NCBI GenBank assembly: GCA_040902515.1
Contig: JBBDXB010000006.1
Span: 499,419 to 563,418 of the forward strand
DNA: 64,000 bases
Reading direction: 5' to 3'
From: Patescibacteria group bacterium
GTDB taxonomy: Bacteria > Patescibacteriota > SICC01
Both the position numbers and the translations under genes were made by a program. The notes under the pieces are model-generated. The model was not told where the DNA came from. It searched no databases and worked only from the letters and a program-made list of their open reading frames with translations. Positions 47,725-49,545 of the stretch are shown piece by piece (the stretch's first letter is position 1; every line of letters begins with the position of its first letter).

Positions 47725-49545
47725 ATGGCTACTGCTACCGCAAAGCGTGAAATCCCAGCCGAAGTAAGGGCGGAAGTACTTGAGCGTGATGAAAACAAGT
47801 GTAGGGAATGCGGATCCAAGCAGGGACTCAACCTGCACCACGTCTTGCCGGAACAGTTTGGTGGCAAAGAGACTCCCGACAATCTGATAACCGTCTGCAA
47901 GCTCCACCACAAAGCGAAACACGTGGAATTCCACATGTTCTATGGAGATAGCCGTAGTGTGGTTGCGCATATGAGGCGCTACGCCGACCAGGTACGTCAG
48001 CTGAGCGGTAACTTCTTCGGGTTGATGGGCGAGGTACGGCTTAAGCCCGTTCTCTACCTGCTGACCGGACAACGGACATTCCGTCCAAGTCAGGAAGAGG
48101 TAATCCGGGACGTGCTGGCGGGGCGTGACGTGTTATTTGTGACCCCGACAGGATCAGGGAAGTCACTTTGCTTTCAATTGCCGGGTCTTTTACTAGACGG
48201 ACAGACCATGGTTATTTCACCCCTGAAGTCTCTGATGAAGGATCAGGTTGAAGGATTGCTCAAACGGAAAGTACCAGCTACCTATATCAACAGTGACCTC
48301 GGTACGCATGAGAAAAACCAGCGGATAAAGTTTGCCTTAGAAGGGTTGTTCCGGTTCCTATATGTAACCCCCGAGCGGTTTTTCCAGCCGCGCCTCAACC
48401 TGAAGAACAGACTTATTCGAAAGTACAAACTGTTGGCGGTAGACGAAGCTCACTGCATCGATCTCTGGGGGCGCAACTTCCGGCCTTCTTACGCGAAGCT
48501 AGGAGAGCTGAAAAAGGCTCTGGGAAGTCCTCCGACCTTGGCGCTCACGGCAACGGCATCGAAACGAGTCCAAAAAGAAATACTTAAATCCCTTGATATG
48601 CCGAACGCGAAGCGTTACGTCACGGGTTTTCACCGCCCGGAGATTGAACTTTATAACCTGCAAATACCGGTCGGCTTCAAAGATGAAAAGACAGGGGACT
48701 TACTCAGAAGCGAAGAAAAAGTCGATGCCGCGAAAGCGGATCTCATCGAGCGGATACTCAAAGCTCCGAAGTACTACAAGCCAAACCCTCGGCGCCGGTG
48801 GCGAATGATAAAACGAGATATTGCTCCTAAGAAATTCGCGTTGGTTAAGGATGCGCTTTCAGAGCATCGAGAGCAGAGGGTTTCTTTCTACCAAACTTTC
48901 TTTCGGAAGTATAAGGGAGAGCTGCGCGCGGCGGTAAAGCTCATCCGGGACAAAAAACTCAAGCGTGGCGTGAGCCGTTTGACCAAGGCTCGCCAGAAAG
49001 TGCTTTGGCAGACGTATCAGATCGTCAATGACGACAAAGTTCTGATATTCGTGCCGACCGTTACCAAGGGAAAGGAATTAAGAAAAGAGCTAGAGAAGCG
49101 GGGCATTGCCATTGATTTCTACCATGGGAAACTGCCGGTTCACGAAAAAACCCAAGTACAAAACCGCTATTCCGGACTGTTTGGCAAGCAAAGCCGGGCG
49201 CTGATTAGCACCTCCGCATTCGGCATGGGAATAGACATTTCAAACATCAGGCGAGTGGTTCACTACTCGGTTACGGCAAGCCTAGAGGATTACTATCAGC
49301 AAATCGGGCGAGCGGGCAGGGATCGCAAGCGGTCTAAAGCGTTTCTGCTCTATGCCCCGGGCGACGAGGAATTAATCCGCTTCATGAACGAAGTTTCCAA
49401 AGAAGACAAGGAGGAACCGCTAACCGCACAGCAACGAGAACGCCTCGTTCAAATCGAAGAAAAAGAGTTGTCGGCAATGCTCGACTATCTCCAGGCGCCC
49501 CATCAATGGCGTCACATCCTCGATTACTTCGGAGAAACCGTTTAG
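47725..49545 (+). CDS. HNH endonuclease fused to a RecQ-family DNA helicase (no RQC/HRDC domains; about 130-aa basic insertion between the RecA lobes)
   Basis: N-terminal CRECGS...LHHVLP...DNLITVC..HH; RecQ motifs [99 protein letters not shown]. Confidence 0.85.
   Translation: [606 protein letters not shown]

Follow-up and report, generated by a model that had tools for sequence, protein, structure and literature searches.

What does a RecQ-type helicase that carries a nuclease domain at its N-terminus do at the head of a row of restriction-type genes, and does it form one system with them? The question is raised by a locus in a 64,000-nucleotide stretch from a Patescibacteria group bacterium (contig JBBDXB010000006.1 of assembly GCA_040902515.1, positions 499,419 to 563,418), referred to below as the window. 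A preliminary description of this DNA had presented the gene at 47725-49545 as an HNH endonuclease fused to a RecQ-family helicase, with an unusual insertion between the two helicase lobes and as the first gene of a defence operon. On the plus strand we found an open reading frame (ORF) of 606 codons with a translation of 606 amino acids, and an identical NCBI protein (P0001) is entered under a Patescibacteria metagenome-assembled genome. As judged from its sequence, the product is an N-terminal HNH nuclease whose catalytic and zinc-ligand motif is intact, fused to a complete RecQ-type helicase core. We tentatively regard this HNH-RecQ protein as a working member of a widespread subfamily, carried as separable cargo of an island under an XRE-type regulator, and possibly acting as an autonomous effector. 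A defence role is plausible, and we lean slightly towards it, because the gene appears intact and lies in the cargo of a mobile island rich in restriction-type genes.

Domain architecture and family of the HNH-RecQ protein

Pfam searches, which the preliminary description had proposed as a check, assigned an HNH domain (PF01844) to residues 26-67 with 30.7 bits against a cut-off of 21.4, a DEAD domain to residues 120-283 (4.9e-29) and a Helicase_C domain to residues 431-533 (2.3e-22), while RQC, HRDC and RecQ_Zn_bind gave no match anywhere in the 606-residue protein. Both the N-terminal nuclease, whose catalytic residues are conserved, and the lack of the RQC and HRDC domains had thus been recognised correctly. 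The NCBIfam model recQ_fam (TIGR00614; 309 bits, above its cut-off of 219.8) places the protein in the RecQ family, and the equivalog models of canonical bacterial RecQ are missed (TIGR01389, 326 versus 640 bits; PRK11057, 271 versus 1015 bits). The alignment to Escherichia coli RecQ (1oyw) falls into two blocks, residues 106-309 and 440-604. Within it a 16-letter RecQ motif aligns with VVSPLISLMKDQVDQL of the E. coli enzyme, and a second motif likewise matches a 21-letter E. coli stretch, so that the near-identity previously claimed for both is confirmed.

The superfamily 2 (SF2) motifs 0, I, Ia, II (DEAH), III, V and VI are all present, together with the aromatic-rich loop of RecQ. Lobe 1 carries Q123 of motif 0, G145-K146 of Walker A, DEAH at 240-243, TAT at 275-276 and the loop residues W248/F252/R253; lobe 2 aligns to residues 240-339 of E. 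coli RecQ, with Q525..R532 of motif VI conserved. The C-terminus lies three residues past a DYFGE sequence, at the very point where the 1oyw alignment ends. We take this end to fall just before the zinc-binding cysteine cluster of RecQ, a position that we placed by alignment to an E. coli RecQ sequence. The cysteines of that cluster are missing here; of the zinc subdomain, the protein retains just the helical part.

An AlphaFold2 (AF2) model built on an alignment of 55 relatives has a mean predicted local distance difference test score (pLDDT) of 85 and a predicted template modelling score of 0.82, and is confident except at residues ~347-436. With this model as query, the best structural matches of Foldseek were RecQ catalytic cores. 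The HNH domain and a linker helix (residues 76-96) are packed on lobe 1 with pLDDT above 90, and this confident placement suggests that, as in Cas3, the motor carries the nuclease along.

The fusion is by no means restricted to the window. All of the 120 best database matches align over the N-terminal region of ~100 residues, and the Pfam HNH model finds the domain in ~55 of them. These 120 come from Patescibacteria, Saccharibacteria among them, as well as from rhizobia and further groups, and the length of most is 520-570 residues; members are also found in other Alphaproteobacteria (Sphingomonas) and in Gemmatimonadota. In the 55 aligned relatives the HNH residues given in Table 1 are invariant (H38, H39, N53 and H62) or nearly so, as are the ATPase motifs and the three residues of the aromatic-rich loop. 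The comparison indicates that HNH-RecQ is a family-wide architecture and not a chance fusion, and that such fusions are common and form a large family, presently hidden in public annotation under the sole name "RecQ family helicase". The HNH domain itself seems to be of a generic small type, according to a search of the N-terminal 110 residues against 1.84 billion representatives, and resembles the HNH domain of IscB in NCBIfam. Plain RecQ-like genes lacking an HNH domain also occur in Patescibacteria (loci L033 and L051), and the matches in phage and plasmid collections are almost all to ordinary RecQ proteins devoid of HNH, those in the phage collection starting after the HNH region.

Most relatives run 30-65 residues past the DYFGE-type sequence, and in 70 of the 97 in which this anchor could be located the C-terminal segment is strongly hydrophobic and resembles a membrane anchor. 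The 606-residue protein is without that tail (compare 49537-49545). A tail-anchored RecQ-type helicase-nuclease, as suggested by relatives P0003-P0056 and others, would be unusual.

The basic insertion and the divergent XRE gene

The segment between the two lobes comprises 130 residues, compared with 25-35 in almost all of 119 relatives. In the AF2 model the extra residues lie at ~347-436, on the front edge of lobe 2, between its first helix (330-346, the normal connecting helix, which is kept) and its first strand (438-442). The preliminary description had counted about 130 inserted basic residues; that is the length of the whole inter-lobe segment, and by the structure model the net insertion amounts to ~90-100 residues. 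It is strongly basic, with 27 lysines and arginines in 90 residues (30%) and a pI of 11.1, and is modelled with low confidence (pLDDT 35-67). Its GC content and third-position GC equal those of the rest of the gene, and no repeats flank it. Apart from a copy on contig L003, neither Pfam nor a search of 5.8 billion proteins gave a match or homologue for the insertion, and nothing similar occurs elsewhere in the window. An intein, a mobile insertion and an assembly artefact were considered and rejected, as intein termini and direct repeats are lacking, the GC content is uniform and the insertion is present in an independent contig (L003); a borrowed domain was rejected in the absence of any similarity in Pfam, the databases or the window.

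The copy on contig L003 belongs to P0002, the sole other carrier, which is 40% identical to the window's protein in the insertion and 67% in the core. Its gene (L003, 9998-11497) has lost the second helicase lobe in all reading frames and appears to be a decayed copy among ordinary genes. In P0005, also a close relative, ~30 residues of unrelated sequence occupy this position, and the insertion is missing from the other relatives that are associated with an SNF2 gene. The insertion is hence real, as first described, but it is a peculiarity of this protein, shared with a single decayed relative; these comparisons indicate that it is genuine, inherited, restricted to one small lineage and weakly constrained. 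It may represent a recent, fast-evolving surface excursion that adds DNA contacts or a docking surface; most likely, although this is speculative, it would provide lobe 2 with an additional arm for binding DNA or a partner.

As had been stated before, a gap of 38 bp (47687-47724) separates the ATG from a divergent gene of the XRE type. The encoded protein matches R-M (restriction-modification) control-protein models of PADLOC at 6e-8. In the gap we found a 20-bp palindrome that ends 4 bp before the ATG and overlaps a -10-like TATATT. The window contains it once, where chance would predict 0 matches, and it recurs without change at 7388-7407 of contig L004, again upstream of an HNH-RecQ gene; the proteins encoded on its two sides are 73% (XRE, in the same divergent position) and 56% (HNH-RecQ) identical to those of the window. 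Further copies were sought and none was found in the window, the other 152 loci or the viral contigs. The palindrome is a likely operator, to which the XRE protein would bind much as controller proteins do in R-M systems, and the XRE protein probably controls the HNH-RecQ gene. Given where the TATATT element is placed, transcription may start at or near the ATG, possibly yielding a leaderless transcript. The XRE gene, the palindrome and the HNH-RecQ gene apparently constitute a unit that travels together, and this is the strongest conserved linkage that we observed.

The island, its genes and the role of HNH-RecQ

At ~42 kb the GC content drops from ~65% to ~49%, beside tRNA genes (41148-42544) and the gene of a large serine recombinase (Table 1). 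On the strand opposite the recombinase gene, a tRNA-Trp gene predicted at 42468-42544 overlaps that gene's 3' end. As for attachment sites of the island, the only repeat of the tRNA-Trp end is one of 12 nucleotides at 62062, which is at chance level, and this candidate was dismissed. On the minus strand the island encodes the recombinase, an AAA_25 ATPase (a domain that we take to be of the RepA/DnaB type), a CHC2 zinc-finger protein of the primase type, a DUF5659 protein, a protein without assignment and the XRE protein. On the plus strand, 57 nt separate the HNH-RecQ stop codon from the start of the PLD-SNF2 gene; the latter, the methylase, the Cas4-like and the 310-residue genes overlap each other, and the GmrSD gene then follows. 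Terminator-like structures were predicted between none of the plus-strand genes of this array. The gene therefore does head a same-strand array without predicted terminators, as the term defence operon had implied, and this array lies in a low-GC island with a recombinase; its membership of one system with the array is possible rather than demonstrated.

Table 1. Features of the HNH-RecQ locus, in coordinates of the window
Feature	Position	Strand	Basis
Large serine recombinase, left edge of the low-GC island	42479..44131	-	Pfam Resolvase, Recombinase, Zn_ribbon_recom
Divergent XRE/Cro-C1-type helix-turn-helix (HTH) gene, 81 aa	47441..47686	-	Pfam HTH_3, 8e-13; PADLOC capH and R-M control-protein models
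20-bp palindrome ACACTAAGATATATTAGTGT, candidate XRE operator	47701..47720	.	Inverted repeat, conserved in L004
HNH-RecQ-like helicase-nuclease gene	47725..49545	+	ORF, Pfam, recQ_fam, AF2, Foldseek
HNH domain, C26 C29 H38 H39 N53 C58 H62 H66	47800..47925	+	PF01844, conserved columns
RecA-like lobe 1, residues 120-283	48082..48573	+	Pfam, 1oyw alignment, conserved columns
Lineage-specific basic insertion, residues ~347-436	48763..49032	+	Segment length, pLDDT, pI, GC
RecA-like lobe 2, residues 437-545, motifs V TSAFGMGID and VI QQIGRAGRD	49033..49359	+	Helicase_C, alignment
C-terminal helical hairpin, residues 546-606, and stop codon	49360..49545	+	Aligns to RecQ ~340-391
PLD (HKD-like)-SNF2 helicase	49603..52767	+	Pfam PLDc_2, SNF2-rel_dom, Helicase_C; PADLOC C3a139 'HKD+Snf2', DrmD
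Type IIG/PglX-like N6-adenine methyltransferase, NPPY at residue 764	52751..56329	+	PADLOC REase_MTase_IIG 5.5e-201, Pfam Eco57I, weak NCBIfam PglX
Cas4-like PD-(D/E)XK nuclease, CxxC...CxxC	56277..57101	+	Pfam PDDEXK_1; Cas4 models (PADLOC, NCBIfam)
310-aa protein	57076..58008	+	No family assigned (Pfam, PADLOC, NCBIfam)
GmrSD-type (type IV) restriction enzyme	58073..59908	+	Pfam GmrSD_N, GmrSD_C

Several observations concern other parts of the window. The PLD motif of the PLD-SNF2 protein reads HSK....S..GSSN, compared with the classical HxK(x)4D. A low-GC stretch at 16000-18474 (~44% compared with ~65% in the host) contains two ORFs, 16252-17250 and 17257-18015, that could not be annotated. 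Its immediate neighbour is a tmRNA gene (18050-18474), a classic target of integration, so that the stretch may be another small island. A very long minus-strand ORF of 1886 residues (28488-34148), within high-GC host sequence, has no Pfam match.

We examined about 35 genomic contexts of relatives, and their neighbours vary widely. Contig L004 has a serine recombinase as well, but differs downstream of the HNH-RecQ gene: there the opposite strand encodes another helicase and an N6_N4 methylase, and next comes a Cas4-like gene 75% identical to that of the window. In L098, whose HNH-RecQ protein is 43% identical, one strand carries GmrSD, SNF2, two methylases, HNH-RecQ, a Cas4-like gene and a gene without assignment, and the partners are only distant homologues of the window's genes or unrelated to them. 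Four Saccharibacteria contigs (L006-L008 and L010) show an Eco57I-type methylase and a PLD-SNF2 gene on one strand and, on the other, a serine recombinase, a 140-residue gene and a RecQ-like gene facing an FtsK/SpoIIIE translocase; to us this layout recalls the integrative conjugative elements of actinomycetes. Other neighbours include two Mrr genes, a methylase and GmrSD-HNH (L005), SIR2 with HerA, a pairing that we take to be a described defence system, plus a PLD gene (L009), a KAP NTPase, MazG and a Schlafen-type helicase (L094), and SNF2-NOV_C with WYL (L014). Ordinary-looking neighbourhoods were found in L001, L003, L090 and L092, and the same neighbours recur on several contigs (L001/L002, L090/L091 and L092/L093). 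On two viral contigs the relative adjoins a tape-measure gene (L141) or a D5-type primase (L142). In 20 proteobacterial and Gemmatimonadota loci no neighbour was recurrent, as none of the families matched by 144 neighbour ORFs in Pfam and PADLOC appeared more than 2-3 times. The neighbourhood comparison that had been proposed for these fusions thus gives a divided answer: some relatives do reside in defence islands or prophages, but others have housekeeping-like surroundings or no recurrent neighbour at all; no gene accompanies the fusions throughout, and mostly they occur by themselves.

The genes next to HNH-RecQ also occur without it. The family of the Cas4-like protein is very large in Patescibacteria (at least 7998 matches, typically 55-61% identical), and a typical member was found surrounded by housekeeping genes. 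The members closest to the window's protein (84-86% identical) end other R-M operons that are devoid of HNH-RecQ. One of these, in L148, consists of C5 methylases, a type ISP enzyme and Vsr, then a CBASS-type (SMODS) gene, and shares with the window a recombinase (51% identical) and the Cas4-like protein (85%); the other, in L149, has an HsdR-like helicase and a methylase-specificity fusion. The Cas4-like protein may be a general accessory of R-M systems (type ISP, type I-like and type IIG-like) in Patescibacteria. We considered it as an obligate partner of HNH-RecQ, given its 75% identity in L004 and its adjacent position in L098, and abandoned this idea in view of the size of the family and of its closest members. 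Among the closest counterparts of the Cas4-like gene at 56277-57101, compared at L148 (8557-9327), L149 (6224-6976) and L004 (15069-15857), an overlap of 4 nt with the gene before it is frequent. On plasmids of Thermus, Meiothermus and Parabacteroides, proteins homologous to PLD-SNF2 (29-33% identical) are paired with methylase homologues, likewise without HNH-RecQ. In two of these three pairs (L154, L155 and L156) a hypothetical gene lies between the two.

Since the related island in L148 lacks the HNH-RecQ gene, the gene is not part of the island backbone, a possibility that the island in L149 likewise contradicts. The pieces of the array each occur alone elsewhere, in L148 and L149, on plasmids and as solitary relatives, and hence behave as separable modules; HNH-RecQ is best read as a separable cargo module of the island. 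With the family common and separable, an obligatory tie between HNH-RecQ and the adjacent PLD-SNF2/methylase system is unproven and, in our judgement, improbable.

How might such a protein work? RecQ enzymes translocate 3'-to-5', and in canonical members the hairpin of the winged helix (RQC) separates the strands. The RecQ core encoded here would be expected to bind single-stranded or forked DNA and to move 3'-to-5' on ATP, and the rigidly attached HNH domain may nick or cut DNA along the way, damaging invading or replicating foreign DNA. It may profit from ends or nicks made by the PLD-SNF2/methylase module, the Cas4-like nuclease and the GmrSD enzyme, without needing them, and repression by the XRE protein would limit self-damage, as controller proteins do in restriction systems. 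Because the winged helix is missing, nuclease action during translocation may matter more for this protein than classical helicase activity.

Several points weigh against an autonomous effector of this kind. True unwinding activity is uncertain without the winged helix, and the lost C-terminal tail together with the low-confidence insertion could mean an altered or reduced function. Several close relatives (L001, L090 and L092) lie among ordinary genes without defence neighbours, and three relatives are on viral contigs, for which a role in the DNA metabolism of an element or phage would fit equally well. The contexts form a small and uneven sample in which ORF calling at high-GC loci was crude and mechanical, and full-text literature searches found no experimental study of an HNH-RecQ fusion.

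The protein could instead be an integral subunit of one methylation-based system, formed with the PLD-SNF2 protein, the PglX-like methylase and the Cas4-like protein, in which it takes the place of a YprA-type helicase-nuclease and docks through its insertion. The array is on one strand, tightly spaced and predicted to be free of terminators; RecQ-like genes stand beside SNF2 and Eco57I-type methylase genes in three more independent contexts (L006-L008/L010, L098 and, with another helicase and methylase, L004); and the template of DISARM class I and ARMADA is established (PMC12458937). Yet the gene order is different each time, with distant or unrelated partners in L098 and L004, and most relatives have no such neighbours. 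The PLD-SNF2/methylase pair and the Cas4-like clade exist without HNH-RecQ, the other SNF2-associated relatives do without the insertion, and HNH-RecQ keeps its distance of 57 nt from four downstream genes that overlap. We therefore consider an integral subunit unlikely. Somewhat further from probability, in our view, is a service to the mobile element itself rather than to defence: the protein would help the island or a prophage to replicate, excise, be packaged or be transferred. It would explain why, in Saccharibacteria, a serine recombinase precedes the gene on its strand and FtsK/SpoIIIE lies opposite it, why the gene in the window and L004 abuts the XRE switch of the element, and why relatives are found near tape-measure and D5 primase genes on viral contigs; a membrane-anchor-like tail, as in many relatives, would suit DNA entry or exit. 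The related islands in L148 and L149 nevertheless manage without the gene, the window's island has its own AAA_25 ATPase and CHC2 protein, many relatives are outside recognisable mobile elements, and the phage collection yielded essentially ordinary RecQ without the HNH region.

More doubtful still seems a RecQ variant for DNA repair, of a kind typical of Patescibacteria with their small genomes, that the island happened to capture. The family is abundant in Patescibacteria, where several members lie among housekeeping genes with shared neighbours (the three contig pairs above), and the RecQ-specific motifs are fully conserved, but here the gene resides in horizontally acquired DNA among restriction genes, and a fixed HNH nuclease under a repressor is atypical of repair RecQ. 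Patescibacteria moreover have the plain RecQ-like genes mentioned above, and rhizobia and Sphingomonas carry the family too; as we expect these bacteria to have a canonical RecQ as well, HNH-RecQ would presumably be accessory there. Very improbable, finally, is a gene in decay, in which the insertion and the loss of the tail would be signs of a crippled protein that is barely active or inactive. The only other carrier of the insertion did lose its whole second motor lobe, the insertion evolves faster than the core, and the tail of most relatives is missing, but the frame is open over its full length with every catalytic motif intact, the core is modelled confidently around the insertion, whose base composition matches the rest of the gene, and the regulator and putative operator are conserved. 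The separable, XRE-controlled effector thus remains the reading that we prefer. In a bolder one, HNH-RecQ would have replaced the YprA-type helicase-nuclease of DISARM/ARMADA-like systems in Patescibacteria and so, with PLD-SNF2, the PglX-like methylase and the Cas4-like nuclease, given rise to a distinct class of XRE-controlled, multi-helicase, methylation-based restriction, with the insertion as docking arm. The family as a whole, mostly tail-anchored, would then be an effector of defence, widespread but unrecognised, whose target is DNA at the cell envelope. We offer this as a conjecture that is quite unlikely to be correct.

Comparison with known systems

Bacterial RecQ is the nearest structural relative (E. 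coli RecQ, 1oyw, and the Cronobacter sakazakii RecQ-DNA complex, 4tmu; phmmer 7e-64, Foldseek 5e-31), sharing both lobes and the aromatic-rich loop. Unlike it, the protein of the window has an added HNH domain and an insertion of ~90 residues, and has no zinc cysteines, winged helix (RQC) or HRDC domain. Among defence models, the PADLOC model PDLC02859, labelled 'DpdF' of the Dpd 7-deazaguanine systems (545 positions), gives a match of 1e-102 that starts at the HNH domain and spans the two lobes, which means that the HNH-RecQ architecture is already part of a defence-gene library. Together with the 120 best matches that span the N-terminal region, this marks HNH-RecQ as a common family rather than a rarity. 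The curated NCBIfam model of DpdF (NF041063) scores only 146.6 bits compared with a cut-off of 550, and the DpdE model 92 bits compared with 500 for the SNF2 neighbour. Neither a curated Dpd match nor a modification gene was found in the array, to which the search for DpdA, DpdB and DpdC was confined.

The preliminary description had noted that RecQ-family helicases are no standard component of DISARM, BREX or Type I/ISP systems; RecQ-like helicases are nevertheless already known in defence, in the form of DpdF and of PsyrT/RqlH. The latter is genotoxic when its partner does not keep it in check and has been reported to act against phages, and this partner is a DprA-homologous antitoxin of 400 residues, RqlI/PsyrA (PMC4670107; bioRxiv 10.1101/2022.05.11.491447). 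The PsyrT model of PADLOC matches the 606-residue protein at 6e-71. Unlike in PsyrTA, no DprA-type antitoxin adjoins the gene, whose neighbours encode the 81-residue XRE protein and PLD-SNF2, and no HNH domain is attributed to PsyrT in either of the two reports cited.

The systems built around YprA-family helicases (DISARM, ARMADA and Druantia) offer a looser parallel. In DISARM class I and ARMADA, an SNF2 helicase and a PglX-like methylase are combined with a YprA-type helicase that is fused to, or accompanied by, a nuclease (PMC12458937), and the window has an analogous SNF2 protein (BrxHII/DrmD-like), a PglX-like methylase and a helicase with a nuclease side by side. The helicase here is nevertheless of the RecQ family, without DUF1998 and with an N-terminal HNH rather than a C-terminal Vsr or PLD domain, and its co-occurrence with SNF2 and methylase genes is facultative. 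Of DISARM class 1 (DrmA, DrmB with DUF1998, DrmC with PLD, DrmD and DrmMI), the array contains neither DrmA nor DUF1998; the DrmD model reaches 128 bits compared with 610 and the DrmMI matches are weak, so that the array falls outside this class. ARMADA, in which a YprA-like helicase with a C-terminal Vsr domain is joined by a BrxHII-like SNF2 protein and a PglX-like methylase (PMC12458937), finds weak counterparts of its SNF2 and PglX-like proteins here, while the YprA helicase is absent. The BREX-related type-1 systems comprise a DUF499 ATPase, a DUF1156 methylase and an SNF2-nuclease (PMC12839542), and Pfam detected neither DUF499 nor DUF1156 in the array. Membership of Dpd, PsyrTA, DISARM, ARMADA or BREX-related type-1 systems was accordingly rejected, since their defining components are absent.

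The lesson of the window itself is modest: the gene is real and intact, the insertion is private to one lineage, and the link to the restriction-like neighbours is unproven. If HNH-RecQ proteins were shown to protect against phages or plasmids, they would form a new defence family, particularly common in the poorly understood Patescibacteria, and the meaning of PADLOC "DpdF-like" matches outside Dpd loci would be clarified.

In its overall design the protein is reminiscent of Cas3, with an N-terminal metal-dependent nuclease followed by an SF2 motor of 3'-to-5' type. Its helicase part matches Pfam Cas3-like_C_2 (4e-6; 27.4 bits compared with 27) and the PADLOC model 'poss. alt. Cas3' (2e-53), and no CRISPR or Cascade genes are apparent nearby, although no specific search for an array was made. 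The nuclease of Cas3 is of the HD type; here it is HNH, and the core is RecQ-type. Hna has the reverse domain order, with the helicase first and the nuclease last, and is not of the RecQ type, so that it serves as an analogy only, likened by description rather than by sequence. Two reports describe Hna, first found in Sinorhizobium, as a single polypeptide of helicase and nuclease that is broadly distributed and brings about abortive infection and DNA degradation (PMC13381803; PMC12445080). Helicase-nuclease fusions such as Cas3, Hna and the YprA-type protein of ARMADA, and complexes such as HamAB of Hachiman, are recurring engines of bacterial immunity, and it is to these that HNH-RecQ would be added if it proves to act in defence.

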